Position numbers and translations under genes: made by a program
In this document: positions 4,853-55,527 of the stretch, one piece after another
Position numbering within the stretch: the first letter of the stretch is position 1
Layout of the letters: each line of letters opens with the position of its first letter
From: Clostridia bacterium
GTDB lineage: Bacteria > Bacillota > Clostridia > Christensenellales > CAG-138
Assembly (NCBI GenBank): GCA_016292635.1
Contig: JAEDIC010000001.1
Coordinates: 3,275 to 67,274, forward strand
Length of the DNA: 64,000 nucleotides
Direction: 5' to 3'
The notes under the pieces: model-generated
What the model was told of the DNA's origin: nothing
What the model saw: the letters and a program-made list of their open reading frames with translations, nothing else
Databases searched by the model: none

Positions 4853-4858
4853 CCTGCT

Positions 4859-4887
4859 ATTTTATAGATTTTACGCCGCTTTGTCAA
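4859..4887 (-). promoter_or_regulatory. sigma-A type promoter for the metG T-box leader
   Basis: Minus strand reads TTGACA (4882-4887), a 17-nt spacer, then TAAAAT (4859-4864). Confidence 0.55.
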
Positions 4888-5006
4888 TGGGCGGAGCAAA
4901 GTATACTTCCATATTGAGCCTTTTTGTTTTTCCGCCCAATAAAACAGCCCCGATGCCTTAAACATCGGAGCTATACGAAAGTCCATATCGGGCTTTAGCA
5001 GTCGTC

Positions 5007-5876: not shown

Positions 5877-5912
5877 GGGGGTATTATAGCATCGGATTCA
5901 CCCGCCAACAAG

Positions 5913-5941
5913 TTAACATTTCACGAATTTTGTGGTATACT
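5913..5941 (+). promoter_or_regulatory. sigma-A type promoter for argS
   Basis: TTAACA (5913-5918), a 17-nt spacer, then TATACT (5936-5941), about 50 nt upstream of the argS start. Confidence 0.5.
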
Positions 5942-5989
5942 ATAAAATTGGAAAATATCGGTGTGAAAAACACCCTTAAAGGAGATATT

Positions 5990-25524: not shown

Positions 25525-26748
25525 ATGCTCAATGTATTGACGCCGGATGAGACCCTGAAGCTTATACAGCGGGAGTTTTCACATATCGCCCCCATACGGG
25601 AGACCGTGGAGCTTTCACGGGCCGTGGGCCGTGTGCTTTATGAGGACGTGGAAGCCACGGAATACGTGCCGGGATTTGACCGCTCCACCGTGGACGGCTA
25701 CGCGGTAAGGGCGGCGGATACCTTCGGCTGCAGCGACGCGGTTCCCGCCATACTGGAAATCGCCGGCAAGGTGCTCATGGGGGAAGCTGCGGATATTACC
25801 ATCCGGGAGGGCCAATGCTGCGCCGTGCCCACCGGCGGCGCTCTTCCCATGGGCGCGGACAGCGTGGTAATGATAGAATACGCCGAGGACTACGGAGACG
25901 GCACGGTAGGCATAGGCAAGGCCGCAGCCCCGGGACAAAATGTGATATTCAAAGGGGATGACGTTTTCCCCGGCAAAACGGTGCTGAAAAAGGGCCGCCG
26001 CCTGTCCTCTCAGGATATAGGCGCCCTTGCCGCCATAGGCAAAGCCCGGGTATCCGTGGCGAAAAAGCCTCGCATAGCCATAATCTCCACCGGTGACGAG
26101 CTGGTGTCTCCCGCCGAGATCCCCGGCGCAGGGCAGGTTCGGGATGTAAACGGGGCGATGCTCTACGCAATGCTCACATCCTTTGGCGCTGAACCTGTGG
26201 AGCTTGGCATAATAAAGGACGATGAGGATGAACTTAGGCGGGCGGTTTCCCGGGCTGCGGAAAGCTGCGACGGCGTGCTGCTTTCCGGGGGCAGCAGCGT
26301 TGGGGAAAGAGACGCCGCAGCAAAGGTGATAGGCGGCCTTGGCGAGCTGCTGCTCCATGGCATAGCCATGAAGCCCGGCAAGCCCACCATAATGGGCCGG
26401 GTTTTCGGCAAGCCGGTAATAGGCCTTCCGGGACATCCCGTGGCGGTGTATTTTGTATCCCGCGTGGTGGTGCTGCCGCTGCTGGGCTTCTTTACGGGGC
26501 TTGATATGCCCCGCTATACCGTAGCGGCGGAGCTTGGCGAAAGCGTAAGCGCAAACCACGGCAGGGCGCAGTATCACTGCGTGCGGCTTGCAAAGGAACA
26601 GGATAAGCTTATCGCCCATCCCATACGCAGCAAATCCGGCCTTATCACCACTCTTGCAGGAGCGGACGGATATTTCTCTATACCCAGAGATTGTGAAGGG
26701 CTGCAAAAGGGTGCGATAATACAAGTAACTCTATGGGGAGAGGAATAA
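25525..26748 (+). CDS. moeA: molybdopterin molybdenum/tungsten transferase MoeA
   Basis: 407 aa. MoeA pattern (FDRSTVDGYAV, ISTGDELV, SGGSSVGERD, MKPGKP). Confidence 0.9.
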   Translation: MLNVLTPDETLKLIQREFSHIAPIRETVELSRAVGRVLYEDVEATEYVPGFDRSTVDGYAVRAADTFGCSDAVPAILEIAGKVLMGEAADITIREGQCCAVPTGGALPMGADSVVMIEYAEDYGDGTVGIGKAAAPGQNVIFKGDDVFPGKTVLKKGRRLSSQDIGALAAIGKARVSVAKKPRIAIISTGDELVSPAEIPGAGQVRDVNGAMLYAMLTSFGAEPVELGIIKDDEDELRRAVSRAAESCDGVLLSGGSSVGERDAAAKVIGGLGELLLHGIAMKPGKPTIMGRVFGKPVIGLPGHPVAVYFVSRVVVLPLLGFFTGLDMPRYTVAAELGESVSANHGRAQYHCVRLAKEQDKLIAHPIRSKSGLITTLAGADGYFSIPRDCEGLQKGAIIQVTLWGEE

Positions 26749-29168: not shown

Positions 29169-29657
29169 ATGGCTCAAATCAGCGAAAACGGAAGAGCGGA
29201 AATATGCGCTATCTGTGAAAAGTACGCAAATGAAACCACCCCACTGATGATGATCCTCAGCGACATCCAGAAGAAATTCGGCTATATTCCTCTGGAGGCT
29301 CAGGAAATAGTATCCGAGAAGACCGGTATATCCGTAGCCGAGATATATGGCGTGGTCACGTTTTATTCATTCTTCTCCCTCAAACCAAAGGGCAAATACA
29401 TTATCGGCTGCTGTCTGGGCACCGCCTGCTACGTTAAGGGCGCCCAGCAGATAATCGACAAATTCTCCGAAATACTTGGCATCGCCCCCGGCGAGACCAC
29501 CGCAGACGGTCTCTTTACCATAGACGCGCTGCGCTGTATTGGCGCCTGCGGCATTGCCCCCGCCGTTACCATAAACGGCAAGGTATACCCCAAGATGACG
29601 GTGGATAAGGTTGCCGAAGTGGTTAAGGAATATCGCAGCATGGGAGGTGCGGAATAA
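29169..29657 (+). CDS. NuoE/HydC-like [2Fe-2S] subunit of an NAD(H)-linked flavoprotein module
   Basis: Start is MAQISENG at 29169, after GGAGAAAGG. The Cys pattern CCLGTACYVKG...CIGACGIAP is typical of NuoE-family thioredoxin-like 2Fe-2S proteins. Confidence 0.85.
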   Translation: MAQISENGRAEICAICEKYANETTPLMMILSDIQKKFGYIPLEAQEIVSEKTGISVAEIYGVVTFYSFFSLKPKGKYIIGCCLGTACYVKGAQQIIDKFSEILGIAPGETTADGLFTIDALRCIGACGIAPAVTINGKVYPKMTVDKVAEVVKEYRSMGGAE

Positions 29658-31540
29658 TGATTAAAACTTATGACGAACTCAATGCTAAAATAGCAAGCTG
29701 CACCACCGCTATGGCCTGGAAGCTTGACGGCAGGAGCGGCAAGCGGGCCGTAGTTCTCTGCGGCGGCACCGGCTGCCTCTCTTCGGATTCCGCTGCCATA
29801 AGGGAAGAATTCGAAAAGAAGGTGAAAGAAAAGGGTCTCTCCGATAAGGTCACCGTAAATCAGGTTGGCTGCTTCGGCTTCTGCTCCCAGGGTCCCTTCG
29901 TAAAGATATATCCCGAAGATACCCTTTACCGTCTGGTAAAGCTGGAGGACGTTGAAGAGATAGTTGAAAAAGACCTCATCGGCGGCCAGGTTGTTGAGCG
30001 TCTGCTGTTCGTGGACCCCAAAACCAAAGAAAAGATCGTTAAGCAGGATGAGATTAATTTCTACAAAAAGCAGCGCCGTGTTGCGCTGGCTGCCTGCGGC
30101 GTTATCAATCCCGAGGAGATTGACGAAGCTCTGGGCTTCGGCGCATTCCAGGGCCTTGCCCGTGCCCTTAAAATGGACCGGCAGGAAGTTATAAACGAGA
30201 TACTGGCCTCCGGTCTGCGCGGACGGGGCGGCGGCGGCTTCCCCACCGGCCGCAAGTGGCAGTTTGCCTACAACTCCCCCGGCAATGAAAAATACGTGGT
30301 CTGCAACGGCGACGAGGGCGACCCCGGCGCATTCATGGACCGCTCCATATTCGAAGGCAACCCCCTGGCGGTAATCGAGGGCATGATGATCGCCGGCTAC
30401 GCAATCGGCGCGCAGAACGGCTATTTCTACGTTCGCGCCGAGTATCCCGTTGCGGTGAACCGCCTTCAGATTGCCATTAGCCAGGCCCGTGAATACGGCC
30501 TCCTTGGCGAAAACATTCTGGGCAGCGGCTTTAATTTCGATCTGCACATCCGCCTTGGTGCGGGCGCATTCGTATGCGGCGAAGAAACCGCCCTGCTCAA
30601 CTCCATCGAGGGCAAACGCGGAACTCCCCGTCCCCGTCCTCCCTTCCCCGCCGTTAAGGGTCTTTGGGGCAAGCCCACCATCGTAAACAACGTTGAGACC
30701 ATGGCCTGCGTTCCCTACATCATGCGTGAAGGCGCAGCCAAGTTTGCCGAGTGCGGCACCGAAAATTCCAAGGGCACCAAGGTATTCGCTCTGGGCGGCA
30801 AGGTCAATAACGTGGGCCTTGTGGAGATCCCCATGGGCACCACCATCCGTGAGCTGGTATACGATATCGGCGGCGGCATCCCCGGCGATAAGCAGTTCAA
30901 AGCCATACAGACCGGCGGTCCTTCCGGCGGCTGCCTTACCGCTGAGTTCCTTGATGAACCCATCGACTTCGATACCCTTACCGCAAAGGGCTCAATGATG
31001 GGCTCCGGCGGCGCAATAGTAATGGACGAGGACAACTGCATGGTGGACGTTGCCAAGTTCTACATGGAGTTCATCTGCGATGAATCCTGCGGAAAGTGCA
31101 CTCCCTGCCGCGTTGGCACCAAGCGCATGCTTGAGACCCTCACCAAAATAACCGAAGGCAAGGGCACCCTTGAGGACCTTGACAAGCTGGAAGAGCTCAG
31201 CGCCCTCATAAAGAGCAGCTCCCTCTGCGCACTGGGTCAGACTGCCTCCAACCCCGTTATGTCCACCCTCAGGCACTTCCGTGATGAATACGTTGCCCAC
31301 GTTGTGGATAAGAAGTGCCCCGCAAAGGTCTGCAAGAACCTGATGCAGTACGTTATTGACAAGGAAAAGTGCATCGGCTGCGGAATGTGCGCACGTCAGT
31401 GCCCCGCCGACGCCATCCACAAGACGGATTACACCGCCCCCGGCAAGAAGCTGCCTGCAATGGCTATCGATACAGACAAGTGCGCCAAGTGCGGCGCCTG
31501 TATCGCCACCTGCAAATTCAACGCCATATCCAAGCAGTAA
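29657..31540 (+). CDS. NuoF/HydB-like FMN and NAD(H)-binding subunit with extra 2Fe-2S and 2x[4Fe-4S] domains
   Basis: 627 aa. N-terminal thioredoxin-like domain (CGGTGC...GCFGFCSQGP) and FMN site GRGGGGFPTGRKW. Also ESCGKCTPCR and a C-terminal ferredoxin (CIGCGMCARQCP, CAKCGACIATC). Confidence 0.9.
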   Translation: MIKTYDELNAKIASCTTAMAWKLDGRSGKRAVVLCGGTGCLSSDSAAIREEFEKKVKEKGLSDKVTVNQVGCFGFCSQGPFVKIYPEDTLYRLVKLEDVEEIVEKDLIGGQVVERLLFVDPKTKEKIVKQDEINFYKKQRRVALAACGVINPEEIDEALGFGAFQGLARALKMDRQEVINEILASGLRGRGGGGFPTGRKWQFAYNSPGNEKYVVCNGDEGDPGAFMDRSIFEGNPLAVIEGMMIAGYAIGAQNGYFYVRAEYPVAVNRLQIAISQAREYGLLGENILGSGFNFDLHIRLGAGAFVCGEETALLNSIEGKRGTPRPRPPFPAVKGLWGKPTIVNNVETMACVPYIMREGAAKFAECGTENSKGTKVFALGGKVNNVGLVEIPMGTTIRELVYDIGGGIPGDKQFKAIQTGGPSGGCLTAEFLDEPIDFDTLTAKGSMMGSGGAIVMDEDNCMVDVAKFYMEFICDESCGKCTPCRVGTKRMLETLTKITEGKGTLEDLDKLEELSALIKSSSLCALGQTASNPVMSTLRHFRDEYVAHVVDKKCPAKVCKNLMQYVIDKEKCIGCGMCARQCPADAIHKTDYTAPGKKLPAMAIDTDKCAKCGACIATCKFNAISKQ

Positions 31541-32079: not shown

Positions 32080-33396
32080 TCAGGCGTTTTCAGCCTGAGC
32101 GGCAAGCTTCGCTGCCTTTTCCGCCTGCTTTGTGGGGATATCCTTGCAGAGGGCATTCAGTATGGGTATGAGCACCATGGTAACTATGCCGGAAGTGAAA
32201 CCGCCGTTATACACATTGAAGCCCAGATGGAAGGAGGCCGTGTTGAACACAAGGCAGGCATGCAGCGCGCCCGCCAAAACGCCCCATATGAGACCCCAGC
32301 GCCCCGCCACGGGAGACATGCCTGTGGCAAAGCAGATACCAACTGCCCATGCAGTGGCGCTGAGGGGCGTGCCGGTTATGAGGGACACCAGCATATAGCC
32401 CAGCATGATGGGAAATACATTGCGGGGATGTGAGCCATTGCCCGCCCAGCAGGTTATGCAGAGCAATGAGCCCATTATTGGGCCGGTGAACTTTGCGCCT
32501 GCAATGGCAAAATAGGCAAGGCACATTATGCCCAGAAAGCCAAAGTTGATAAGCACGTTGCCGGCGCCGTCCAGCTTTGAGAAATCGCAGCTGTGGCCGG
32601 TGCGCATGATAAGGGCGCCGTAGCCCTTGAAGCCCTTGTTGATTATCGCGCCGGCTATTACCGAGGCTATGAATATGCCGCCGAAGAAGAACAGGAAAAA
32701 GCTGCGGTATCCGTCGCTCACTATGCTGTTTGTAGTAAACTCGATTCCCATGGGGGCGAGAACGGCGTTTTTATATATGCCCGCCCACAGTACGCCGATA
32801 AGGCCGGCGGAAAGGCCAACGTTAAACAGGTTATGGCCCTGATGCATGGTGGCGGCGTGGGCGGATACGGCGGGGATGATAAAGCCTATCAGTCCCCCTG
32901 CCATTACCGCCAGCGGTATGCCCAGGGGAAGGGGTATATCAATGAACCTGTTGAAGAGCATTTCGCTGACCACGGGGGCAAGCGCGCCGCCGAAGAGGGC
33001 AAAGTGCGCGTACTTGGTGAAGGATTCCTTTTTTACCCTGGCATACAACCACGTGCCCAGCAGGATGGGCCACATATTGACGCAGTTTTTGCCGAAGAAG
33101 CTGAATCCTATGGTAAGAAAGAACGCGCCCACGGTTATGCCGGAGGCCTCCACCTTTGCTGTCTTCAGTATGGCTATGGCGATAAGGCCCAGCATACCCG
33201 CCTGGAACAGACCGCCGTTGAGCCCGCCCACGGCCAGGGCGTCCACGGTAAGGGACTGGGGGCTGGTGAGTATGGCCCAGAAGCCTTTGAACATTTCATT
33301 TACGGGGCCGGTAAGGGATCCGGCAACTATCAGTGCCAGAGAAAAAGCGAGGAAAAATATGTATAATACCTTGGAAGTGTTTTTATTAGCTTCCAT
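32080..33396 (-). CDS. polytopic membrane protein, DUF1576-like
   Basis: 438 aa with about 10-12 predicted TM helices. FFGKNCVNMWPILLG and FGGALAPVVSE patterns recall DUF1576. It is the last gene of the fdhA-mobA-fdhD string. Confidence 0.6.
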   Translation of the reverse strand: MEANKNTSKVLYIFFLAFSLALIVAGSLTGPVNEMFKGFWAILTSPQSLTVDALAVGGLNGGLFQAGMLGLIAIAILKTAKVEASGITVGAFFLTIGFSFFGKNCVNMWPILLGTWLYARVKKESFTKYAHFALFGGALAPVVSEMLFNRFIDIPLPLGIPLAVMAGGLIGFIIPAVSAHAATMHQGHNLFNVGLSAGLIGVLWAGIYKNAVLAPMGIEFTTNSIVSDGYRSFFLFFFGGIFIASVIAGAIINKGFKGYGALIMRTGHSCDFSKLDGAGNVLINFGFLGIMCLAYFAIAGAKFTGPIMGSLLCITCWAGNGSHPRNVFPIMLGYMLVSLITGTPLSATAWAVGICFATGMSPVAGRWGLIWGVLAGALHACLVFNTASFHLGFNVYNGGFTSGIVTMVLIPILNALCKDIPTKQAEKAAKLAAQAENA

Positions 33397-34856: not shown

Positions 34857-37535
34857 TTATGCTTTCTCTATCCTTGCGGCGCAGACTTTCAGCTCAGGTA
34901 TCTTTGCTGTGGGATCGATAACGGTGTTGGTAAGGACATTTGCGGGGCCATCGGCAAAGTGGAAGGGCATGAACAGCACCCCTTCGGCTACTATGTCGGT
35001 TACCCTTGCCTCTACAACCAGACTGCCCCTGCGGGAGGTGACCCTTACCCTGTCGCCGCTTACAACTTCCAGCTTGGCGGCGTCTGCGGGGTTGATTTCA
35101 ACATAGGAGCGGCCGGATATATTCATAAGGCCCTCTACCCTGCCGGTCATGGTGCTGGTGTGATAGTGGTAAAGTATGCGTCCGGTGGTGAATATCATGG
35201 GGTATTCACCATCGGGAGTTTCGGCGGAGGGACGATAGGGAGCGGGCTTGAAGAGAGCCCTCTCGCCCCTGCTGAATTTGCCGATGTGCAGTATGGGGGT
35301 GCCGGGATGATCCGCAGTGGGGCAGGGCCACTGGAGAGAGCCCAGCTCCTCAAGGCGCGCGTAGCTCATTCCGCCGTAGGAGGGAGTTACAGCAGCCATT
35401 TCGGCGAATACTTCCTCAGCGGTCCTGAAGCTGTTTTTGTAGCCGATGGCAGCCATCACGTCGGAAAGTATCTCGAAATCCGCGCGGCTCTCGCCGATGG
35501 GATTGATGGCCTTGCGTATGCGCTGTACACGGCGCTCGGTGCTGGTGAAGGTGCCGTCCTTCTCAGCAAAGGAGGCGCCGGGAAGAACAACGTCCGCAAG
35601 CGCTGCGGTCTCGGTGAGGAATATATCCTGAACCACCAGCAGCTCGCACTTTTTAAGGGCCTTTTCAACATGGCCCAGGTCGGGGTCGGACATCATGGGA
35701 TTCTCGCCCATGATGTACAGGCCGCGAATCTTGCCTTCCTCAACGGCGTTGAGCATCTCGGTAACGGTAAGGCCGGGCTTGGAGGGCAGGCTTACGCCCC
35801 ATGCCTTTTCGAATTTTTCACGGGCCTCATCCTTGAATACTTTCTGGTATGCGGGATAGTCGGTGGGCAGGCAGCCCATATCGCAGGCGCCCTGAACGTT
35901 GTTCTGTCCGCGCAGGGGGTTTACGCCGCAGCCGTACTTTCCGATCTTGCCGCAGAGCAGAGCCAGGTTGGATGTGCCCATAACGCCCTCGGTGCCGGTG
36001 GAGTGCTGGGTAACGCCCATTGCGTAGTAGATGCCGGCCTTTTCAGCCTTGGCATAGAGGCGGGCGGCCTTTTTGAGCTCCTCGGCGTCGATATTGCATA
36101 TCTCCGCAACCACTTCGGGAGTGTAGTCCTTAACTGTTTCAACAAGCTCCTCGTAGCCCTCGGTGCGCTCGTCTATGTATTTCTGATCCTGCAGACCCTC
36201 GTTGATGATAACGTTCATCATGCCGTTGAAAAGGGCAACGTTGGTGCCGGGCTTTATCTGGAGGAATACATCGGCCTCACGGCAAAGGGGTATGCGGCGG
36301 GGTTCCGCAACGATTATCTTTGCGCCCTTCTTGTGTGCCTGGCGGATAAGGGAGCCGATAACGGGGTGCGTCTCGGTGGTATTGGAGCCCGTTACGAACA
36401 CAACGTCCTGATCCGCCGCCTCCGCGATGGAATTGGTCATTGCGCCGGAGCCGAGGGTTATGGCGAGGCCCGCAACTGTGGAGGCATGGCAGAGACGCGC
36501 GCAGTGGTCAACGTTGTTTGTGCCAATGGCGGCGCGCATCATCTTCTGGAATACATAGTTATCCTCATTGGAACAGCGGGCGCTGGAAAGACCCGCCAGA
36601 GCATCCGGGCCGCTTTCCGCCTTGATGGCCTTTATCTTATCGGCAATGTATGCGATGGCCTCGCTCCACTCCGCCTCAACCAGCTCCCCTCCCTTGCGGA
36701 TAAGGGGCTTCTTAAGGCGATCCTTGTGGTTGATGAAGCTGTAGCCAAATTTGCCCTTCACGCACATGAGGCCCTTATTGGCGGGGCCGTAAAGGGGCTG
36801 AGCGCCAACCACCTTGTCGTCCTTAACGATAAGGTCCATCTGGCAGCCAACGCCGCAATATGTGCAGGTGGTGGGCACTTTCTTGGTTTCAAAGGAGCGG
36901 AAGCGTTCCTTTGACTTGGGAAGCAGCGCGCCAACGGGGCAAACGGATACGCAGTTGCCGCAGGATACGCAGTTGCTGCTCTTGAGCAGATTCTGGAAGG
37001 GGGTGGATACCCTTGCCTTGAAGCCGCGGTTCACTACGCCTATTACAGCCTCGCCGTGGAGGTTCTGGCATACCTGAACGCAGCGCTGGCAAAGTATGCA
37101 CTGCTGAGGATTATAGGTGAAAAACTCGTTGGAATCGTCTATGGGATATTCGTTCTTTACGCCGGCATAGCTGGTCTTTTCCACGCCGTACTCATAGCAG
37201 AGATTCTGCAGCTGGCATTCGCCGTTTTTGGCGCAGCTGAAGCAGTCCGCATTGTGGGTGGAAAGTATAAGGTCCAGAACGTTCCTTCTGGCTTCGATAA
37301 CCTTTTCGGATTTGGTGAAAATCACATTGCCCTCTGCCACTGGGGTGGAGCAGGCGGTAAACAGCTTTGGCATACCCTCTATTTCCACCAGACACATACG
37401 GCAGGAAGCCTCGGGAGTAAGGTCCTTAAGGTAGCACAGGGTAGGGATCTCTATCCCCACGCTTTCCGCTGCCTGCAAAATCGTGGTTCCCTCGGGTACT
37501 TGCAGCCTGATTCCATCGATAGTTACGTTCAGCAT
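34857..37535 (-). CDS. fdhA: formate dehydrogenase catalytic subunit (bis-MGD, Cys-type) with fused NuoG-like Fe-S N-terminus
   Basis: 892 aa. N-terminal 2Fe-2S and 4Fe-4S Cys clusters, and a molybdopterin oxidoreductase body. The active-site region reads HCARLCHASTVAGL, with Cys where selenoenzymes have Sec. There is no in-frame TGA. Confidence 0.95.
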   Translation of the reverse strand: MLNVTIDGIRLQVPEGTTILQAAESVGIEIPTLCYLKDLTPEASCRMCLVEIEGMPKLFTACSTPVAEGNVIFTKSEKVIEARRNVLDLILSTHNADCFSCAKNGECQLQNLCYEYGVEKTSYAGVKNEYPIDDSNEFFTYNPQQCILCQRCVQVCQNLHGEAVIGVVNRGFKARVSTPFQNLLKSSNCVSCGNCVSVCPVGALLPKSKERFRSFETKKVPTTCTYCGVGCQMDLIVKDDKVVGAQPLYGPANKGLMCVKGKFGYSFINHKDRLKKPLIRKGGELVEAEWSEAIAYIADKIKAIKAESGPDALAGLSSARCSNEDNYVFQKMMRAAIGTNNVDHCARLCHASTVAGLAITLGSGAMTNSIAEAADQDVVFVTGSNTTETHPVIGSLIRQAHKKGAKIIVAEPRRIPLCREADVFLQIKPGTNVALFNGMMNVIINEGLQDQKYIDERTEGYEELVETVKDYTPEVVAEICNIDAEELKKAARLYAKAEKAGIYYAMGVTQHSTGTEGVMGTSNLALLCGKIGKYGCGVNPLRGQNNVQGACDMGCLPTDYPAYQKVFKDEAREKFEKAWGVSLPSKPGLTVTEMLNAVEEGKIRGLYIMGENPMMSDPDLGHVEKALKKCELLVVQDIFLTETAALADVVLPGASFAEKDGTFTSTERRVQRIRKAINPIGESRADFEILSDVMAAIGYKNSFRTAEEVFAEMAAVTPSYGGMSYARLEELGSLQWPCPTADHPGTPILHIGKFSRGERALFKPAPYRPSAETPDGEYPMIFTTGRILYHYHTSTMTGRVEGLMNISGRSYVEINPADAAKLEVVSGDRVRVTSRRGSLVVEARVTDIVAEGVLFMPFHFADGPANVLTNTVIDPTAKIPELKVCAARIEKA

Positions 37536-38236: not shown

Positions 38237-38662
38237 ATGAAAATCAAGGAACTTTACATAGGCGGCAAAAAGGGTTTACCGCCCCAAAGGGTAAGCTCAA
38301 TGGAGCTTATGGCGGGGCAGGGCCCTGCCGGAGAAGCCCACGGCAAGCGTCAGGCGGGTATGTGGAGCGAAGAAGACAGGGAACGGCTTGAGTCCCTGAA
38401 GGAGCAGGCCCTCTGCGGCAAAAGATTCTTCGCGAACATTATGGTAGACAGTTTTGACGCCGGCCTTAAGGCGGGAGATATTCTCCGCTCAGGCGGTGCA
38501 GTAATGAAAATAGCCCCCGAAGGCAAGCGCTGCTTCGGCGAAGAATGCGAGCTTTTCCTTTCCGGCATACCCTGTCCGCTCCGTAGCTGCATATATCTCA
38601 CCATTGAGACAGGCGGCACAATATCCGAAAACGACCAAATCATCAGGGAGGACAGCCTGTGA
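38237..38662 (+). CDS. MOSC domain protein
   Basis: Start is MKIKELYIGG at 38237, after GGCAGGAGGCG. 141 aa with a MOSC-like beta-barrel pattern and conserved Cys (GKRCFGEEC). Confidence 0.7.
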   Translation: MKIKELYIGGKKGLPPQRVSSMELMAGQGPAGEAHGKRQAGMWSEEDRERLESLKEQALCGKRFFANIMVDSFDAGLKAGDILRSGGAVMKIAPEGKRCFGEECELFLSGIPCPLRSCIYLTIETGGTISENDQIIREDSL

Positions 38663-39609
38663 AAGACAGCTTTGGCAGAGAGATAAAGTATTTGCGCCTG
38701 TCCGTAACTGAGCTGTGCAATCTGCGCTGCAGGTACTGCATGCCGGAGGACGGCATATGCAAAAAGAGCCACGCCGATATGCTTACCGCAGAGGAAACGA
38801 TAGCGGCGGTAAGGGCGGCGGCCTCATTGGGCATAACCAAGGTGCGCATAACCGGGGGGGAGCCCCTTGTTAAGCGGAATGTAGTATCCCTTTGCCGCAG
38901 CGTGGCAAATGTTCCGGGCATAACCGAAGTATGTGTCACCACCAACGCCACACTGCTGGGCAGCCTTGCAATACCCCTCAGGGAAGCGGGGGTGAGCCAT
39001 GTAAACCTCAGCATGGACACCCTTGACCCGGACAAGTATCGCTACATCACCCGCCGGGGAGAGCTTAAGGACGCCCTGGATGGCCTGGACGCGGCGTTAA
39101 ACGCCGGGTTTGACAAGTTAAAACTCAACGCGGTTTTGATAGGCGGCTTTAACGACGACGAAATACCCGCAATTGCGGAGCTTAGCCGCAAGTATCCCAT
39201 GGACGTCAGGTTCATAGAGCTTATGCCCATGCATGACGGAGGGGAATTCGGCCCCGATGCGTACATACCCTGCGCAAAGGTGCTGGAATATCTTAAGGAC
39301 GCCGAGCCCGTTGGTCAGGATGGTGTGGCGGGAATGTACCGGCTGTCCGGGGCAAAGGGCCGCATTGGCCTGATAAGCCCCGTAAGCGCCCATTTCTGCG
39401 GCGCCTGCGACAGGCTGAGATTAACGGCGGACGGCAAGCTTAAGCCCTGCCTCCATTCCCCGGTGGAATACCCCATAAAGGGCCTTAACCAGGAGCAGAT
39501 GGCGGCGGAGATGAAGCGGGCCATACTTGCAAAGCCCCCCTGCCACGATGAGCTTTCCGCCACCAGCAGAAGCCATGCGGGGCGAACCATGAACCGGATA
39601 GGAGGATAG
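38659..39609 (+). CDS. moaA: GTP 3',8-cyclase MoaA (radical SAM)
   Basis: GTG start overlaps the MOSC stop (GTGA). LRLSVTELCNLRCRYCMPE radical-SAM cluster and a C-terminal CGACDRLRLTADGKLKPCL cluster. Confidence 0.95.
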   Translation: MKDSFGREIKYLRLSVTELCNLRCRYCMPEDGICKKSHADMLTAEETIAAVRAAASLGITKVRITGGEPLVKRNVVSLCRSVANVPGITEVCVTTNATLLGSLAIPLREAGVSHVNLSMDTLDPDKYRYITRRGELKDALDGLDAALNAGFDKLKLNAVLIGGFNDDEIPAIAELSRKYPMDVRFIELMPMHDGGEFGPDAYIPCAKVLEYLKDAEPVGQDGVAGMYRLSGAKGRIGLISPVSAHFCGACDRLRLTADGKLKPCLHSPVEYPIKGLNQEQMAAEMKRAILAKPPCHDELSATSRSHAGRTMNRIGG

Positions 39610-39611
39610 CC

Positions 39612-40091
39612 ATGGGAGACTTTACCCACTTTGACAATAAAGGCGGCGCGAAAATGGTGGACGTGGGCGAAAAGGACGTTACACGGCGCAAGGCCACGGC
39701 TGCAGCCCGGGTGCTGGTAAACGACGGCACATTTGAGCTTATCAGGGGCGGCGGCATGAAAAAGGGCGACGTGCTGCAGGTTGCCCGCATCGCCGGCATA
39801 ATGGGAGCAAAGCGCACCCCCGACATTATTCCCATGTGCCATCCCGTAATGATCGACGGAATAGAGATGGATCTCTGGCTGGACGAGGAACGCAAAAGCG
39901 TTGAGATCCGCTCATCGGTAAGCTGCAGCGGCCGCACCGGCGTTGAAATGGAAGCGCTTACCGCCGTATCCACAGCCGCCCTCACCGTATACGATATGTG
40001 CAAGGCGGTTCAGCGGGATATTACCATTACCGACATACGCCTCCTGAGCAAAGCAGGCGGCATACACGGCGATTACGCCGGGGAGAAATAA
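39612..40091 (+). CDS. moaC: cyclic pyranopterin monophosphate synthase MoaC
   Basis: 159 aa. KGDVLQVARIAGIMGAKRTPDIIPMCHP and MEALTAVSTAALTVYDMCKA motifs. Confidence 0.95.
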   Translation: MGDFTHFDNKGGAKMVDVGEKDVTRRKATAAARVLVNDGTFELIRGGGMKKGDVLQVARIAGIMGAKRTPDIIPMCHPVMIDGIEMDLWLDEERKSVEIRSSVSCSGRTGVEMEALTAVSTAALTVYDMCKAVQRDITITDIRLLSKAGGIHGDYAGEK

Positions 40092-40093
40092 AT

Positions 40094-41026
40094 ATGCAAT
40101 ACACCGCAGCGGTTTTGACAATAAGCGACAAGGGCTCGAGGGGCGAGCGCATAGACACCAGCGGCCCCGCCCTCTGCAAAATACTTAAAGAGCATGGCTA
40201 CAATGTTACCTACACAGCCATTTTGCCCGACGATATGGAAACCATAAAGGCGGAGCTTATCGACTGCTGCGACAGGCGGCAGACCGCCCTTGTGCTTACC
40301 ACCGGCGGCACAGGCTTTGCTCCCCGGGATGTTACCCCGGAGGCCACGCTGGCAGTTATAGAGCGGGAGACACGGGGCATAGCTGAGGCCATGCGCTCAG
40401 CCAGCATGGCTATAACTTCCCGGGGCTGCCTTTCAAGGGCGGCGGCGGGCATACGGGGAAACAGCCTTATAGTAAACCTGCCCGGAAGCGAAAAGGCCGC
40501 AAAGGAAAACATACTTTCCGTAATAGACCCCATAGGCCACGGTCTGGATGTGCTGAGGGCGGAGGTGCCCACGGACTGCGGCCCACAGACCGCCCTGATA
40601 AAGGCCGTATGCATAAGCGAGCGCAAAGGCACGCAAAAGCATACTGTGGACAGCATAGAGCTTAAGCCGGGTCACGGCATTGTGGGGGATTCCCACGGGG
40701 GGCAGTGGCACCGTCAAGTAAGCATACTTGGGACGGAGAGCGTTGCAAAGCTTCAGGAAAAGATATCCTTTACCCTGCTGCCCGGCGCTTTCGCGGAAAA
40801 CATTCTTTGCGAGGGCATATGTCTCTTCAGGCTGCCCGTCGGCACAAGGCTGAGAATAGGCACCGCCATATGCCGGGTCACCCAGATAGGCAAGGCCTGC
40901 CATGCGGACTGCGCTATTCGCCAAGCCGCCGGCGACTGCGTAATGCCGAGAGAAGGCATATTTGTGGAAGTGCTTGAAGGGGGCATCGCAAGGGCCGGGG
41001 ATACCATAGAGACCCTGCCCCAATAA
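40094..41026 (+). CDS. MoaB/MogA-like MoCF-biosynthesis domain fused to a MOSC domain
   Basis: Start is MQYTAAVLTISDKGS at 40094. The N-terminal ~165 aa is MoaB/Mog-like (LVLTTGGTGFAPRDVTPEAT, LPGSEKAA). The C-terminal ~140 aa is MOSC-like. Confidence 0.85.
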   Translation: MQYTAAVLTISDKGSRGERIDTSGPALCKILKEHGYNVTYTAILPDDMETIKAELIDCCDRRQTALVLTTGGTGFAPRDVTPEATLAVIERETRGIAEAMRSASMAITSRGCLSRAAAGIRGNSLIVNLPGSEKAAKENILSVIDPIGHGLDVLRAEVPTDCGPQTALIKAVCISERKGTQKHTVDSIELKPGHGIVGDSHGGQWHRQVSILGTESVAKLQEKISFTLLPGAFAENILCEGICLFRLPVGTRLRIGTAICRVTQIGKACHADCAIRQAAGDCVMPREGIFVEVLEGGIARAGDTIETLPQ

Positions 41027-41106
41027 TTTTCCTTGCAGACAATACGCCCGCCTTTGGACGATTGCTGATAAACTAAACACCTAAGCAAAAAACAGGAGGA
41101 ACCAAA

Positions 41107-42144
41107 ATGAAGAAACTGTTGGCAACCCTTTTGATCGCCCTTATGACGCTGGGCCTCGTGGCAGGCTGCGCTCCCGCTCAGGAAGCCGTTGAAGCCCCCG
41201 TGGAGGAAGCTGCAGAAGAAGTAGTGGCTGAGGAAGTTGTTGAGGAGCCCATTGAAGAAGCCGCAGCTCTGAACACAGTTATCCTCAAGGAGCAGGATGA
41301 CAAGATGATCAACACCTACTCCGTTATCGCCGTTGACCCCGAGGCTCCCTTTGCGGACGCTGACGGCAACGCTGTTGAAGACGTGGCAATAAACACCGCC
41401 GGCGCAGACGCTCTCATCAAGTTCCTCCTCAGCGAGGAAGGCCTTAAGCTGGCAGGCGAATACGGCGTTGAGCAGTATGGCGACTATCTCTTCTATGTAA
41501 AGGAAGACGCTCCCCGTTACGAGGGCGAAATAGCCGCCGCAACCGAGGAGACCAAGGTCATCCGTCTCTCCACCACCACCTCCGTAAATGACTCCGGCCT
41601 CCTGGGCTATCTGCTGCCCGCCTTTGAAAACGCCTATGGCTACACCGTGGAAGTTCAGTCCGCCGGCACCGGCAAGGCCATCGCCGCCGCCAAGTACGGC
41701 AACGCCGACCTTATCCTCGTTCACTCCAAGAGCCAGGAAGAAGCCTTTGTTGAGGAAGGCTTTGCCCGTGTATTGGACGGTTTTGAGGGCGAGCGTCTCT
41801 CCTTCCTCTATAACTTCTTTGTACTCTGCGGCCCCAGCGAAGACCCCGCCGGCGCAGCCGCTGCCGCCGATGTTCTCACCGCTTTCGCATCCATTGCCGA
41901 TGGTAAGTACACCTTCATCTCCCGCGGCGATGCTTCCGGCACCCATACCAAGGAGCTGTCCCTCTGGCCCGAGGAGCTTGGCATAACCGCCGAGGCCGAT
42001 TCTTTTGCCGGCTACACCGATTGGTATGTTTCCGCCAACACCGGCATGGGCGCCTGCCTTGTAATGGCTGAGGAAATGGGCGGCTATATCCTTACCGATA
42101 AGGCCACCTTCCTTACCTTCGTTGCCAACGGCGGCGTAATGTAA
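41107..42144 (+). CDS. tupA: tungstate ABC transporter substrate-binding lipoprotein (TupA-like), apparently circularly permuted
   Basis: Lipobox LVAGC followed by an acidic linker. The TupA anion-binding motifs RLSTTTSVNDSGLL and SRGDASGTHTKE are present. The NTYSVIAVDP...FLLSEEG segment, normally C-terminal, lies N-terminal to them. Confidence 0.8.
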   Translation: MKKLLATLLIALMTLGLVAGCAPAQEAVEAPVEEAAEEVVAEEVVEEPIEEAAALNTVILKEQDDKMINTYSVIAVDPEAPFADADGNAVEDVAINTAGADALIKFLLSEEGLKLAGEYGVEQYGDYLFYVKEDAPRYEGEIAAATEETKVIRLSTTTSVNDSGLLGYLLPAFENAYGYTVEVQSAGTGKAIAAAKYGNADLILVHSKSQEEAFVEEGFARVLDGFEGERLSFLYNFFVLCGPSEDPAGAAAAADVLTAFASIADGKYTFISRGDASGTHTKELSLWPEELGITAEADSFAGYTDWYVSANTGMGACLVMAEEMGGYILTDKATFLTFVANGGVM

Positions 42145-42227
42145 GGTATTGAAAAGAATTTCTGAATAAAGCATAATACCATTGGGCGGAGCCTTCCGCC
42201 CAATGACGACTTTTGGGAGGTTACATA

Positions 42228-42914
42228 ATGCAGTCTGCGCTGGAAAAGGCCGTTGAGCTCATATTATCCGGCAACCGGGAGCTTATGAGCATACTCTCGG
42301 TTACCGCCCGCATGAGCATAAGCAGCTCCCTCATTGCGCTGCTTATAGGCGTGCCCATCGGCATATGGTTGGGCTCCTGCTCCTTTAGGGGGAGGGAGGC
42401 GCTTGTGGTGATAAACCGCACCCTTATGAGTATGCCCCCGGTGGTATGCGGACTGCTTTTTTATCTGCTTTTCTCAGGGGTAGGCCCCTTCAGGAGCATG
42501 AAGCTGCTGTTCACCGTTGAAATAATGATAATGGCTCAGGTGGTGCTGATAACCCCAATAGTGGTTGGCAATATGGAAAGCTATGTTGCCGCCGTTGCCC
42601 TCCCTGTAAAGGAAACCGCAAGGGGCCTTGGCATAGGGGGCGGAAAGACCCTGCTGCTGCTCCTCAATGAATGCGTATATCAGATATTTTCGGTATATCT
42701 TCTGGCCTTCGCAAGGGCCATAGCCGAGGTTGGCGCCGTAAGTATGGTTGGCGGGGCAATAGCATGGAAAACCAACGTAATGACCACCGCCATAATGCAG
42801 TATACCAACCGTGGAGATTTTTCCATGGGAATAGCCTTGGGCATAATACTTATGACATCGTCCTTGCTTGTTAATATAGCCATATCCCTGCTGCAAAGGA
42901 GGGTAAGCCGATGA
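42228..42914 (+). CDS. tupB: tungstate ABC transporter permease (TupB-like)
   Basis: Start is MQSALEKA at 42228. About 228 aa with 5-6 TM helices. ETARGLGIGGGKT corresponds to the EAA-loop region. Confidence 0.8.
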   Translation: MQSALEKAVELILSGNRELMSILSVTARMSISSSLIALLIGVPIGIWLGSCSFRGREALVVINRTLMSMPPVVCGLLFYLLFSGVGPFRSMKLLFTVEIMIMAQVVLITPIVVGNMESYVAAVALPVKETARGLGIGGGKTLLLLLNECVYQIFSVYLLAFARAIAEVGAVSMVGGAIAWKTNVMTTAIMQYTNRGDFSMGIALGIILMTSSLLVNIAISLLQRRVSR

Positions 42915-43567
42915 AAATAAAGCCCTTTACAAAGACATATGACGGCAGAACGGTATTGGATATGCCTGAACTTGAATTGACAGAGGGCAGTATATACGCG
43001 GTTATCGGCGCAAACGGCAGCGGCAAATCCACCATGGCCCGCATTCTTGCCGGGGCGCTGCCATGCGACAGCGGCAGCCCCGTGCTGGATAGAGCCGTAT
43101 CCGTTGGCTATATGCCCCAAAAGAGCTACGCCTTCCGCATGAGCGCGGAGAAAAACATACTGCTCAGCGGCGGCAATGCAAAAAAGGCAAAGGAGCTTAT
43201 GGAGCGCCTTGGTATTATATCCCTCGCCCGCAACCGTGCGGATAAGCTTTCCGGCGGGGAGACCTCCCGCATGGCCCTCGCCCGGCTGATGATGGGCAAA
43301 TACGGCCTTGTGATACTGGATGAACCCACCGCCGCCATGGATATGGAATCCACCGCCCTGTCCGAGGAGCTTATACGGGATTATTGCAGGGAAACCGGCT
43401 GCACCCTGCTGCTGGTCACCCACAGCCTCCGTCAGGCCCGCCGCCTTGGGGATGAGGCTATATTCCTACATGAGGGCAAGCTTTGGGAGCGGGGTTCTGT
43501 GGAAAAGGTTCTCTTTGCCCCGGAAAAGCCTGAAACCGCCCAGTTTTTGGAGTTTTACGGGGTATAA
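42911..43567 (+). CDS. tupC: tungstate ABC transporter ATP-binding protein (TupC-like)
   Basis: 218 aa. Walker A GANGSGKST, signature LSGGETSR and Walker B LVILDEPT. The start overlaps the tupB stop. Confidence 0.85.
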   Translation: MKIKPFTKTYDGRTVLDMPELELTEGSIYAVIGANGSGKSTMARILAGALPCDSGSPVLDRAVSVGYMPQKSYAFRMSAEKNILLSGGNAKKAKELMERLGIISLARNRADKLSGGETSRMALARLMMGKYGLVILDEPTAAMDMESTALSEELIRDYCRETGCTLLLVTHSLRQARRLGDEAIFLHEGKLWERGSVEKVLFAPEKPETAQFLEFYGV

Positions 43568-54049: not shown

Positions 54050-55527
54050 GATAAGCTCCTTTCCACAGCCTGCCTGAATTCTTCAAGCGCCTTTTTGCCC
54101 GCCGTGTATTCCGCATACGCCCGTTGGTAATACGCCGTAGCCTCAGCGTTTCGCGGAACAGGCCGCTCCTCGTCTCTTACACAGGCAGCAATAGCTCCAG
54201 CTCCATCCTGGTACAACCCAACGCCCAGGCCCGCTGTCATGGCGGCGCCCAGCAAACTATCCGCCACGGCACGGCGGCCGTTAATATCCAACACGTCGCA
54301 TACTATAGATCGCCAAAGCGGGCTTTTCATGCCCCCTCCGGTAAGCTTTATGTCGTTCCATGGATAGCCCATATTGCGGAAGAGGCTGCCCATATCCTTA
54401 AGTGCAAAGGCCAGCCCCTCAAATATGGCGCGAGCGCAGTCACCCCGGGTATGGTGGCGGCCCATCCCCATGAAGCAGGCTTCCGGCTTCTCCGTAGCGC
54501 TTGGCGAACCCCGCCCCAAAAGCCATGGATAGAATACTATTCCTCGGGCACCTGTCCCGCTTTTCTCCGCCTCCTCATTAAATATGTTCAGCCTGTTCTT
54601 AGGTGCGCAGTCGCCGTATGACATGTCCAGAAACCACTGCACAGTGTCTCCGGCGGTTTTTGTAAACCCGCCTGCCACATATTTGCCTTCCAAATAGGGC
54701 CAGCAAAACATTGAATGCTCATACATGAACTTGCCGGGCAGCTTTTTCTCCAGCACTACCCTGGCTATGCCATTGGTGCTCACACTTACGGCGCCGCTTC
54801 CCGGCGTCAGCGTACCTGCCCCAAACATGGCGGCTGCGCCGTCGTTAAGTCCGCAAACCACCGGCGTTCCCGCCTTAAGCCCGGTTTTCTCTGCGACTTC
54901 CTTGCTAAGGCCGCCCGCTACCGCTGTAGACGGCAATATTTCGTCCATCATTTCCTCTGAAAGGCCGCAGATGCCCAGCATGGACTTGTCCCACTTCACA
55001 TTTCCGGCGCTTGATGAGGGCTCGGTCACAAATCTGCCAGTAAGAAAGTGTAATAGAAATCCCTTAATATCGTGTATGTGACTTATTTTTCCAACCATAT
55101 CCGGCCACTGACCCAGTGACCATCTCAACCTTGCCGCAAATCCCGTCTGCGGCATGCCGTGGCCGACCCAGTCATAACCTATTTCCTCAAAAAGCTTGTA
55201 TCCCTCAGAGGCGCAACGGTTATCCTGCCATATCGCCACGGGGCACAGGGACGCGCCGTGTTTATCTACAAATACGACGCCAGGCCCATGAGCCGACACA
55301 CCTATTGCGGCCACGTCCATTTCTCCGTCCATATGCCGTGCCGCATCGGCAAGAACGCCTGTTATGGCGCTTATCCAGTCTCCCGGCTGCTGCTGCGCCC
55401 CATTGGGAATGGAGTGATCTGTTTCAACGGGCCTGGAGGCCACTATCAACTGTTTTCCGTCTAGGCTGTATACGGCGCACTTGCACAGGGTCGTACCCAG
55501 ATCCAGCCCCATTATTACAGGCCTCAT
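54046..55527 (-). CDS. FGGY-family carbohydrate kinase
   Basis: Start is MRPVIMGLDLGTT at 55527, an ATGA overlap with the upstream stop. FGGY N- and C-domain patterns (GVSAHGPGVVFVD, LTGGGMKSPLWRSIVCDVL). Confidence 0.88.
   Translation of the reverse strand: MRPVIMGLDLGTTLCKCAVYSLDGKQLIVASRPVETDHSIPNGAQQQPGDWISAITGVLADAARHMDGEMDVAAIGVSAHGPGVVFVDKHGASLCPVAIWQDNRCASEGYKLFEEIGYDWVGHGMPQTGFAARLRWSLGQWPDMVGKISHIHDIKGFLLHFLTGRFVTEPSSSAGNVKWDKSMLGICGLSEEMMDEILPSTAVAGGLSKEVAEKTGLKAGTPVVCGLNDGAAAMFGAGTLTPGSGAVSVSTNGIARVVLEKKLPGKFMYEHSMFCWPYLEGKYVAGGFTKTAGDTVQWFLDMSYGDCAPKNRLNIFNEEAEKSGTGARGIVFYPWLLGRGSPSATEKPEACFMGMGRHHTRGDCARAIFEGLAFALKDMGSLFRNMGYPWNDIKLTGGGMKSPLWRSIVCDVLDINGRRAVADSLLGAAMTAGLGVGLYQDGAGAIAACVRDEERPVPRNAEATAYYQRAYAEYTAGKKALEEFRQAVERSLS

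Follow-up and report, generated by a model that had tools for sequence, protein, structure and literature searches.

The first gene of a tupA-tupB-tupC operon in a Clostridia bacterium very probably (probability about 0.9, as judged from sequence) codes for the lipoprotein that binds substrate outside the cell for a tungstate ABC importer of the TupABC type, with a chain order that corresponds to canonical TupA after natural circular permutation. The gene lies in the window, the whole stretch of 64,000 nucleotides that was analysed; its ORF (41107..42144, plus strand, 345 aa and stop) is present, and the translation is exactly the one quoted with the sequence. Canonical TupA runs from the signal peptide through the first part of lobe A, a crossover strand, lobe B and a second crossover strand to the second part of lobe A. 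Here the cut falls in a surface loop, after the last lobe B helix (DKATFLTFVA) and before the second crossover strand (VILKEQ), so that a C-terminal module of ~80 residues follows the lipobox and an acidic tether, and a linker of ~15 residues ties the former C-terminus (…LFYVKED) to what was the mature N-terminus (…KVIRLSTTTS). The parts of the gene and its closest neighbours are listed below.

38659..41026, plus strand: moaA, moaC and moaB-MOSC, directly upstream, for pterin cofactor biosynthesis (NCBIfam MoaA 322 bits, MoaC 229 bits; MoaB and MOSC domains)
41107..42144, plus strand: probable circularly permuted TupA-like substrate-binding lipoprotein gene (ORF and translation; TupA homology in swapped order)
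41107..41169, plus strand: lipoprotein signal peptide, aa 1-21, MKKLLATLLIALMTLGLVAGC, with lipobox VAGC and Cys21 at 41167-41169 (sequence reading)
41170..41268, plus strand: acidic, low-complexity tether rich in Ala, Glu, Pro and Val, aa 22-54 (length and sequence vary among homologues; pLDDT <50 at residues 14-51)
41269..41508, plus strand: relocated TupA C-terminal module, aa 55-134 (canonical profile h212-281; BLASTP to P0144; shuffle control; DSSP)
41509..41553, plus strand: junction linker between the former C-terminus and the former mature N-terminus, aa 135-149, APRYEGEIAAATEET (outside both profile matches)
41554..42141, plus strand: old N-terminal core, aa 150-345, comprising lobe A1, the crossover strand that comes first in canonical TupA, and lobe B, ending after helix DKATFLTFVA (canonical profile h29-210, 234 bits; PDB; Foldseek)
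41572..41583, plus strand: TTTS anion-binding motif, T156-S159 (equivalent of Thr9-11/Ser12 in DaG20 TupA; PMC5517513)
41722-41724, plus strand: H206, ligand equivalent (alignment to 5my5)
41923..41943, plus strand: R273...T279 part of the SRGDASGTH motif (equivalent of Arg118 and Thr124 in DaG20 TupA; alignment to 5my5)
42097-42099, plus strand: D331, ligand equivalent (alignment to 5my5)
42213..42914, plus strand: tupB-like ABC permease (NCBIfam TupB 150 bits, below the cutoff of 320 bits; ABC_perm1 169 bits)
42911..43567, plus strand: tupC-like ABC ATPase of 218 aa, without a C-terminal TOBE domain (ABC ATPase family matches; TupC and WtpC models below their cutoffs)

A minus-strand ORF of 473 aa (40753-42174), which overlaps the tupA-like gene, is without support.

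Swapped order of the TupA segments

The N-terminal stretch MKKLLATLLIALMTLGLVAGC is a signal peptide that ends in a bacterial lipobox of the pattern [LVI][ASTVI][GAS]C; its cysteine, C21, is invariant among 44 homologues, and a helix is predicted at residues 2-17 in the AF2 model. The relocated module that follows the tether has three strands, VILKEQ (the second crossover), NTYSVIAV and LFY, with two helices before the last of them. A junction linker homologous to that of the query, 'AP.Y.GEI..AT..TK', is found in the relatives P0121, P0123, P0124, P0131 and P0145.

The swapped order was examined with a canonical TupA profile of 284 positions (h), built from 45 canonical representatives. The native chain matches it as two segments, aa 54-134 to h212-281 (40.8 bits, E 5e-15) and aa 143-339 to h29-210 (234 bits), which together cover the domain; the re-permuted sequence gives a single collinear match (h37-281, 282.8 bits), as does the centre of the doubled sequence (h29-281, 284.3 bits). 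In a shuffle control, the moved segment scored 44.3 bits versus 8.5 bits for the best of 1000 shuffles. The curated family models confirm this: Pfam PBP_like_2 matches aa 145-338 of the native protein at profile positions 3-207 of 267 and the re-permuted one at 14-267 of 267, and NCBIfam TupA matches aa 150-341 at positions 15-192 of 266 in two stretches, and the re-permuted sequence in a single stretch (18-249 of 266). The known structures 3muq, 3lr1 and 5my5 align to aa 146-340, and for 3muq the alignment can be followed in swapped order, from query 150-338 (chain 5-178) to query 55-103 (chain 182-232). In BLASTP searches against the canonical-order relative P0144, the core (query 146-338) matches residues 45-224 with 56% identity (1e-64) and the moved module (query 56-134) matches residues 230-303 with 51% identity (2e-19); over P0144, P0142, P0151 and P0128 together, the core is 53-60% identical. 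The native chain thus departs from the canonical collinear order (lobe A1, lobe B, lobe A2), and at the sequence level a circular permutation of TupA is demonstrated. There is next to no chance that the protein is a TupA cut short at its C-terminus to which an unrelated domain, residues 55-134, was joined at the N-terminus with no permutation, a reading suggested by the Pfam match and the best NCBIfam stretch, which span only aa ~145-341, and refuted by the profile, BLASTP and shuffle tests, in which this segment matches the canonical C-terminal module (40.8-44.3 bits, E ~1e-15), well above the shuffle maximum, and the C-termini of the four canonical-order relatives (46-51% identity), while re-permutation gives an uninterrupted alignment to each of three independent profiles.

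These results bear out the sequence-only reading, which had proposed a circular permutation with the canonical terminal segment at residues ~55-131 (DNA 41269-41499), directly after the lipobox and an acidic linker. The translation has this segment at those positions, as well as RLSTTTSVNDSGLL at residues 153-166, SRGDASGTHTKE at residues 272-283 and a C-terminus that reads ...GYILTDKATFLTFVANGGVM*. The same reading placed the stop where the canonical order would enter the ILVEGD segment, and on the profile the chain does end at ~210, with the new N-terminus at ~212, at the 'L.IL.E.D' strand. Neither observation that it had named as contrary to a permutation was made: no collinear alignment to TupA covers the full mature length, and residues 55-134 share homology with the C-terminal module of TupA.

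The AF2 model is of moderate confidence (pLDDT 73.9, pTM 0.69), and the protein would fold into the normal two-lobe Venus-flytrap shape. The top Foldseek matches are the TupA structures 3lr1, 3muq, 3kn3 and 5my5, with ~195-202 collinear columns aligned and target-normalised TM scores of 0.55-0.63 for the better-superposed TupA chains, the sequential alignment ending at ~200 columns, as would be compatible with a permutation. In the model, the moved module has the order strand-strand-helix-helix-strand (DSSP strands E57-62 and E69-76, helices H97-108 and H110-124). Lobe A of DaG20 TupA (5MY5) consists of residues 2-76 plus 201-251 (PMC5517513), which agrees with the proposal that the last unit of the fold is again part of the first lobe. 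In physical terms, the permutation would mainly shift the exit of the membrane tether, from lobe A to lobe B near the hinge.

Ligand residues, operon and substrate

The tungstate ligands proposed for DaG20 TupA are Thr9-11/Ser12, His59, Arg118, Thr124 and Asp170 (PMC5517513). All of them have equivalents in the query (TTTS 156-159, H206, R273, T279 and D331), none of which lies within the moved piece; T156-T157-T158-S159 align to the TTTS of 3muq, 3lr1 and 5my5, and the whole set is invariant among the 44 homologues of the family alignment A1.

The permuted tupA is the first gene of a tupA-tupB-tupC operon located inside a Mo/W-cofactor and formate-dehydrogenase island, where the other neighbours include two MoeA proteins, an FdhA-like oxidoreductase and a xanthine-dehydrogenase-family subunit. 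Among 83 related loci (80 of the query type and 3 of the P0123 type), a tupB homologue stands immediately 3' of the permuted tupA in 76, and tupC is conserved after tupB; the upstream moaA/moaC/moaB-MOSC trio is found in 18 of the 83. Tungstate would be bound in the cleft and then delivered to TupB/TupC, and the imported tungstate might feed the adjacent cofactor-biosynthesis genes and the FdhA-like enzyme.

On the NCBIfam TupA equivalog model NF041772 (cutoff 400 bits), the native protein scores 129.6 bits and the re-permuted one 142.5 bits. The permutation was rejected as the main cause of this shortfall, which mostly reflects divergence of the lineage, since re-permuting adds little and two Clostridial relatives of canonical order, P0144 and P0142, themselves score no more than ~175 bits. 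As the query and these relatives fall so far below the cutoff, selectivity for tungstate over molybdate is read here from the motifs only. It is accordingly conceivable, albeit unlikely, that the topology is permuted and the protein binds molybdate or another tetrahedral oxyanion, or serves both metals. Besides the missed TupA cutoff, TupB and TupC are below their cutoffs too, the neighbours (the FdhA-like oxidoreductase and the xanthine-dehydrogenase-family subunit) are ambiguous between Mo and W, and the deeper permuted paralogues P0126, P0127 and P0138 have neither the TTTS nor the SRGD motif any more, which is evidence of drifting ligand specificity on this scaffold. In the query, however, every proposed tungstate-binding residue of DaG20 TupA is kept, including the equivalent of Arg118, and the best structural and sequence matches are to TupA rather than to ModA or WtpA. 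The latter two belong to the same superfamily and are likewise two-lobe oxyanion binders of ABC importers, but their similarity is only distant and they lack the TupA-defining TTTS and SRGDxSGTH motifs; the SBP_bac_11 model matches the query at aa 169-259 with 31.7 bits.

Origin of the permuted order and other breakpoints

Two steps are proposed for the origin of the permuted gene: first a tandem duplication with in-frame fusion of a lipoprotein tupA, then an in-frame deletion just behind the signal peptide combined with a 3' truncation. We only infer this route of duplication, fusion and trimming; it is consistent with the tandem TupA-TupA fusions P0147 and P0154 elsewhere in the family and with the homologous signal peptide retained in the re-permuted relative (P0123 type). 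Among the best 150 representatives, no tandem-fusion intermediate was found in the clade of the query, and P0147 and P0154, the only tandem TupA-TupA proteins seen, belong to other lineages. In tblastn searches with three protein segments, no relic of a trimmed second copy was detected downstream of tupA in the window or in 95 loci.

The lack of such an intermediate and of relic DNA would favour another route, for example one in which tupA was split into two genes that re-fused in reversed order, or in which two diverged tupA paralogues recombined; for the permuted glucose-binding protein TpMglB-2, it was also considered that the permuted part might come from another gene (PMC4990184). We regard such a route as quite improbable. 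The same relatives of canonical order, P0144 for one, match both the moved module and the core at ~50-56% identity, so the two parts share one origin; in-frame tandem fusions do exist in other lineages; and five breakpoints are the product expected from differential trimming of a doubled gene.

Besides the query breakpoint at profile position ~212, relatives open the same fold, as judged from profile matches, at four other loops (~100, ~174, ~195 and ~239), two of which were confirmed as intact genes in tupABC operons. All the permuted products bear a signal, and those checked at the DNA level are located in tupABC operons. In neighbour-joining trees, the query, P0121 and P0123 are grouped with 94% bootstrap support, P0123 being nested inside the query-type family; the P0123 type would be a secondary re-permutation, and its signal peptide is homologous to those of query-type relatives, while its internal junction is compatible with an ancestral connection or with a re-fusion. 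P0155 and P0151 are grouped at 92%, P0220 never falls within an all-permuted clade, and bootstrap support for where the h195 and h239 classes belong is 12% or less. Permutation looks to have happened independently at least three times, in one case in an archaeal lineage. The TupA lineage might therefore be read as a natural permutation series, with the fold re-opened at five or more surface loops through three or more independent primary events (in the Clostridial query family, in the P0155 type and in an archaeal Kariarchaeaceae protein) and at least one secondary re-permutation (the P0123 type); this reading is tentative and rather doubtful. Between repeated events and a single ancient fusion trimmed differently, the neighbour-joining bootstrap is firm on only three groupings (the 94% and 92% groups and the position of P0220).

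Conservation and comparison with known proteins

The same architecture was looked for in relatives, as the sequence-only reading had suggested, and was found widely. At least 120 full-length homologues at 72-97% identity occur among the matches listed; all 239 other sampled family clusters share the breakpoint (start h~200-220, end h~210); and 80 species genomes of Oscillospiraceae and Lachnospiraceae, including the isolates Hominiventricola aquisgranensis and H. filiformis, carry a tupA with the query-type breakpoint. The permuted form is conserved across hundreds of gut Clostridia, and homologues number ~4,000-6,000 in all. That it is an artefact of assembly or gene calling, or the remnant of a local rearrangement decaying as a pseudogene, is virtually impossible and is refuted by the same full-length architecture in hundreds of independent contigs and the 80 species genomes, by 80% mean column identity in the family alignment A1 with invariant ligand residues, and by the conserved operon.

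Canonical TupA proteins (5MY5 from Desulfovibrio alaskensis G20, 3LR1 from Geobacter sulfurreducens, 3MUQ and 3KN3) share with the query the Pfam PBP_like_2 fold family, 35-40% identity over ~200 residues, the TTTS, His, SRGDxSGTH and Asp ligand set, and the tupA-tupB-tupC operon by pterin-cofactor genes. In the query, by contrast, the last ~70-80 residues (second part of lobe A and second crossover strand) come first, the old termini are joined by the new linker, and the new termini are located in a lobe B loop. Its closest non-permuted relatives are the canonical-order Clostridial TupA-like proteins P0144, P0142, P0151 and P0128, which have the same lineage-specific insertion after the NTYS.IAV strand and, except for P0128, which has none, a lipobox signal; unlike the query, they keep the ordinary N-to-C order and end at ...LFY(LL/VI)..., where the query runs on into the junction linker.

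No report of a TupA permutation was found in the literature on TupA, tungstate or solute-binding proteins with circular permutation. The nearest precedent found is a type I binding protein, TpMglB-2 (Tp0684) of Treponema pallidum, described as a 'Type Ic / Cluster Bc' circularly permuted glucose-binding protein (PMC4990184). It is likewise a naturally permuted, tethered lipoprotein of an ABC transporter, with permuted homologues mainly in Gram-positive gut bacteria; it keeps ligand binding, and its authors speculated on a link to membrane tethering (PMC4990184). TpMglB-2 is, however, a type I / cluster B sugar binder, whereas the query is a type II oxyanion binder. In TpMglB-2, N-terminal strands were moved to the C-terminus, a fourth crossover arose and the moved part shows poor sequence homology (PMC4990184), whereas in the query it is the C-terminal module that went to the N-terminus, with clear homology.

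The literature has few examples of ABC-transporter binding proteins with a natural circular permutation, TpMglB-2 being the documented case found. A permuted TupA would add a type II oxyanion binder, one whose moved part has much clearer sequence homology and whose family is very large and conserved. The alternative breakpoints would offer evolution-validated cut sites to engineers, who routinely permute binding proteins for biosensors, and the family could serve as a system for testing duplication, fusion and trimming on a secreted protein, in which the signal peptide must stay in place. If the choice of breakpoint is under selection, for example through the tether exit relative to the permease-docking face, these proteins would constitute a natural experiment on connectivity and tether geometry in Venus-flytrap binding proteins.

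Tungsten enzymes in gut bacteria are of current interest (PMC11725836, PMC11980592), and recognition of the permutation would improve the annotation of tungsten uptake in the abundant gut Oscillospiraceae and Lachnospiraceae. In NCBI, these proteins are named only 'substrate-binding domain-containing protein', the domain models span about two-thirds of the chain, and for at least one variant the deposited protein is a truncated 192-aa form. The idea that gut-microbiome surveys miss the permuted proteins entirely was rejected, as IMG gives family members the tungstate-transport COG name and a published survey used COG2998.

Evidence for the circular permutation

The query is the product of a tupA ORF that had been read, from the sequence alone, as a circularly permuted form of the tungstate-binding protein TupA; the residues quoted in that sequence-only reading match the translation of the ORF exactly. 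Its chain is laid out as follows.

41107-42144, + strand: permuted tupA ORF, 345 residues, translated
Query N-terminus: lipoprotein signal MKKLLATLLIALMTLGLVAGC, as read from the sequence
aa 22-54: acidic low-complexity tether
aa 56-131: NTVILKEQDDKMINTYSVIAVDP...LFYV
aa 153-166: RLSTTTSVNDSGLL
aa 272-280: SRGDASGTH
Query C-terminus: ...GYILTDKATFLTFVANGGVM*

A Gly/Ala-rich, low-complexity ORF of 473 aa on the opposite strand (40753-42174, -) spans all of tupA; it is unsupported and resembles a shadow ORF of the GC-rich coding sequence.

Two parts of the chain are distinguished here: the moved module (aa 55-134), C-terminal in canonical TupA, and the core (aa 150-345), N-terminal in canonical TupA. 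Against a TupA profile of 284 positions (h1 to h284) built from 45 canonical-order representatives, the native query gives two matches whose order is swapped: aa 54-134 cover h212-281 at 40.8 bits (E 5e-15), and aa 143-339 cover h29-210 at 234.1 bits. Once re-permuted (150-345 + 55-149), it gives a single collinear match, h37-281 at 282.8 bits, and the doubled mature query contains a central full-length match, h29-281 at 284.3 bits. Public models behave likewise: only the second part of the native chain matches Pfam PBP_like_2 (aa 145-338 to 3-207/267), and NCBIfam TupA is matched as two stretches (aa 150-341 to 15-192/266), while the re-permuted query aligns in one stretch with both (14-267/267 and 18-249/266, respectively). 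BLASTP with the canonical-order relative P0144 returns q146-338 at 45-224 (56% identity, 1e-64) and q56-134 at 230-303 (51% identity, 2e-19); the other closest canonical-order relatives, P0142, P0151 and P0128, also give two strong HSPs in swapped order. In the TupA structure 3muq, the core (aa 150-338) aligns with chain positions 5-178 and aa 55-103 separately with 182-232, and 3lr1 and 5my5 show the same swap.

The proposed permutation is thus borne out by matches that become collinear only upon re-permutation, and both observations that could have overturned it are excluded. A collinear alignment of the whole mature protein with TupA does not occur, as the native query gives two swapped matches; that aa 55-131 form an unrelated domain is ruled out by the profile match, by BLASTP to canonical relatives and by a shuffle control, in which aa 55-134 scored 44.3 bits against a maximum of 8.5 bits in 1000 shuffles. 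On these alignments, the permuted TupA is real and its interpretation as a circular permutation is correct.

An AlphaFold2 model of the query (44 homologues; mean pLDDT 73.9, pTM 0.69) predicts three strands (57-62, 69-76 and a short one at 129-130) and two helices (97-108, 110-124) for the moved module, followed from residue 151 by the usual alternating strand-helix core. Its top Foldseek matches are the TupA structures 3lr1, 3muq, 3kn3 and 5my5 (E ~1e-11). Sequential alignment extends over no more than ~195-202 columns (target-normalised TM 0.55-0.63 for the better-superposed chains), a limit consistent with that expected of a permutation. In TupA of Desulfovibrio alaskensis G20 (DaG20; structure 5my5), lobe A comprises residues 2-76 and 201-251, lobe B residues 91-200, and the central crossover strand residues 77-89 (PMC5517513). 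By the numbering offset of the 5my5 alignment, the query chain break would correspond to about DaG20 residues 184/185, in the loop between the last lobe B helix and the second crossover strand, so that both crossovers are probably kept. Lobe B would carry the new termini close to the hinge, and the linker APRYEGEIAAATEET would connect the two old termini of lobe A.

Distribution and alternative breakpoints

A search of relatives for the same architecture, as the sequence-only reading had suggested, returned the query order in all 239 sampled family clusters (start h~200-220, end h~210) and in 80 species genomes. These genomes are for the most part gut MAGs (human and ruminant) of Oscillospiraceae, Lachnospiraceae and Faecousia, and they include two isolates, Hominiventricola aquisgranensis and H. 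filiformis. At least 120 full-length matches share 72-97% identity with the query. The NCBI label of these proteins is nothing more specific than 'substrate-binding domain-containing protein', and IMG gives family members the tungstate-transport COG name. The tupB gene lies directly downstream of permuted tupA in 76 of 83 loci (80 query-type, 3 P0123-type). In the closest genome locus, L001 (88-93% identity), the tupA-tupB gap is ~300 bp (7044-7347) versus 68 bp in the window, and a tblastn search of this locus with TupA segments detected no relic.

Mapping of the best 150 representatives from an exhaustive search onto the canonical profile gave 80 of canonical order, 31 of query order and several with other start and end points. 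Their breakpoint classes are listed below.

Class a (P0145, P0146, P0158, ORF 4775-5866 of locus L084): start h~195 at GAY(I/V)..DK.T(F/Y)L, ends after the GMG.CL.MA helix
Class b (P0155 type, 10 cluster members): start h~174 at WYVSAGAGMG, ends after SGTHKAELKIW
Class c (P0150, 2 members): start h~239 at the GADAFIKWM helix, ends after NTYSMIAL
Class d (P0123 type, 5 members, 13 contigs): start h~100 at the first crossover strand ERMSYMYNYFVLCGP, ends after EEAFIADGFARLVDG...
Class e (P0220, Candidatus Kariarchaeaceae archaea): start h213, with a transmembrane anchor in place of the lipobox

In the AlphaFold2 model, every breakpoint maps to a loop between secondary-structure elements. The class a gene of L084 is intact and followed by tupB and tupC; class d is intact in three loci (L081-L083; L081 gene 6001-7089), where two MoeA genes precede it and tupB and tupC come after it. 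The class b members come from ENA, NCBI and Logan. Two NCBI records of this cluster, P0275 (MBQ3086657.1) and P0277 (MBR6779882.1), are annotated as 192 aa from an internal Met, while other sources call a 322-aa form with signal peptide, and the deposited gene calls may be truncated.

A bootstrapped neighbor-joining (NJ) tree of re-permuted sequences supports three statements only. The query groups with P0121 and P0123 (94% bootstrap), which nests the h100 form within the query-type family; P0155 (h174) pairs with canonical P0151 (92%); and P0220 falls in no all-permuted clade across the bootstraps. The old-C/old-N junction 'LFY..DAP.Y.GEI..AT..TK.IR.STTTS' is common to the query, P0121, P0123, P0124, P0131 and P0145 and is missing from P0155. 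From the sequence comparisons we conclude that primary permutation would have occurred independently three times or more, with a minimum of one secondary breakpoint change; the archaeal case (~h213) appears independent.

Origin and known precedents

The permuted order would have arisen by duplication-fusion followed by trimming of the doubled tupA. Since a secreted protein must keep its signal peptide, the 5' trimming step would be an in-frame deletion directly after it; the close likeness of the P0123 signal peptide MKKFISLFLAVLMICALCAC to that of query-type P0288, MKKSISLLLALLMLCSLCAC, is consistent with such a deletion. Candidate examples of the duplication-fusion stage are in-frame tandem TupA-TupA fusions in other lineages: P0147 (466 aa), in which a complete canonical copy precedes a frameshifted second one that enters Arg/Pro-rich, out-of-frame-looking sequence, and P0154 (827 aa), in which two TupA-like copies without TTTS come after a ModA-like domain. 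No tandem intermediate of the query's own clade was found among the best 150 representatives, and no relic DNA of a trimmed copy was detected by tblastn with three protein segments in the window and 95 loci. The query permutation event is old.

Canonical TupA is the parent family, with which the query shares ligand motifs, operon and predicted fold; the query is without collinear order and scores under the NCBIfam equivalog cutoff. Among ABC-transporter binding proteins, the type I sugar binder TpMglB-2 has been described as naturally circularly permuted; its permuted homologues, too, are mostly tethered and from Gram-positive gut bacteria, and the authors of that study speculated on a link to tethering (PMC4990184). 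We found no mention of a permuted TupA or permuted type II oxyanion binder in the literature, of which our coverage was incomplete, so an earlier notice is possible. The added interest lies in a large, conserved permuted TupA family with a series of alternative breakpoints.

Proposed ligand residues and genomic context

The proposed tungstate ligands of DaG20 TupA, Thr9-11, Ser12, His59, Arg118, Thr124 and Asp170 (PMC5517513), align with T156-158, S159, H206, R273, T279 and D331 of the query. All these equivalents are invariant in the family alignment, and the moved module contains none. The query scores far under the strict NCBIfam TupA cutoff even when re-permuted (as do canonical-order Clostridial relatives), so that its tungstate selectivity is predicted from motifs only. 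Deeply diverged paralogues of query order (P0126, P0127, P0138, P0169, P0195) lack TTTS and/or SRGDxSGTH, with replacements such as IRLFAPKEIV, VRLLTTTALAES and AYTGNSDLGD where SRGDASGTH is expected, which suggests that the oxyanion specificity of the permuted scaffold has changed or been lost in them.

The moaA, moaC and moaB-MOSC genes lie immediately upstream of tupA; other genes of its surroundings are listed below.

25525-26745 and 26753-28657, + strand: MoeA pair, further upstream
29657-31537, + strand: NuoF-like FMN/Fe-S subunit, near the FdhA-like gene
32080-33396, - strand: DUF1576 membrane protein
34857-37535, - strand: FdhA-like molybdopterin oxidoreductase, 892 aa, NuoG-like Fe-S N-terminus
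42213-42914, + strand: TupB-like permease, downstream of tupA
42911-43567, + strand: TupC-like ABC ATPase, 218 aa, after the permease
55524-57731, - strand: xanthine-dehydrogenase-family molybdopterin-binding subunit (MoCoBD_1/2, Ald_Xan_dh_C), downstream of tupA

The query most likely serves as the tethered receptor for tungstate in a TupABC importer that supplies pterin-cofactor enzymes. TupB scores 150 bits against a 320-bit NCBIfam cutoff, and TupC is likewise under its equivalog cutoff; the NCBIfam TupC model (319 positions) includes a C-terminal TOBE-type domain that is absent from the ATPase. The likely consumer of the imported metal is the FdhA-like oxidoreductase with the NuoF-like subunit; the oxidoreductase gene is one uninterrupted ORF, therefore without in-frame TGA, and the enzyme is presumably not a selenocysteine enzyme. 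The xanthine-dehydrogenase-family subunit is a further Mo-cofactor enzyme close to the transporter. An adjacent MoeA pair also adjoins the h100-type tupA in L081 (2727-4637, 4627-5847). In the window, the second MoeA (635 aa) has a PBP_like domain (PF12727, 233 bits) fused at its C-terminus; this domain may serve the metal-insertion enzyme as an oxyanion-binding module.
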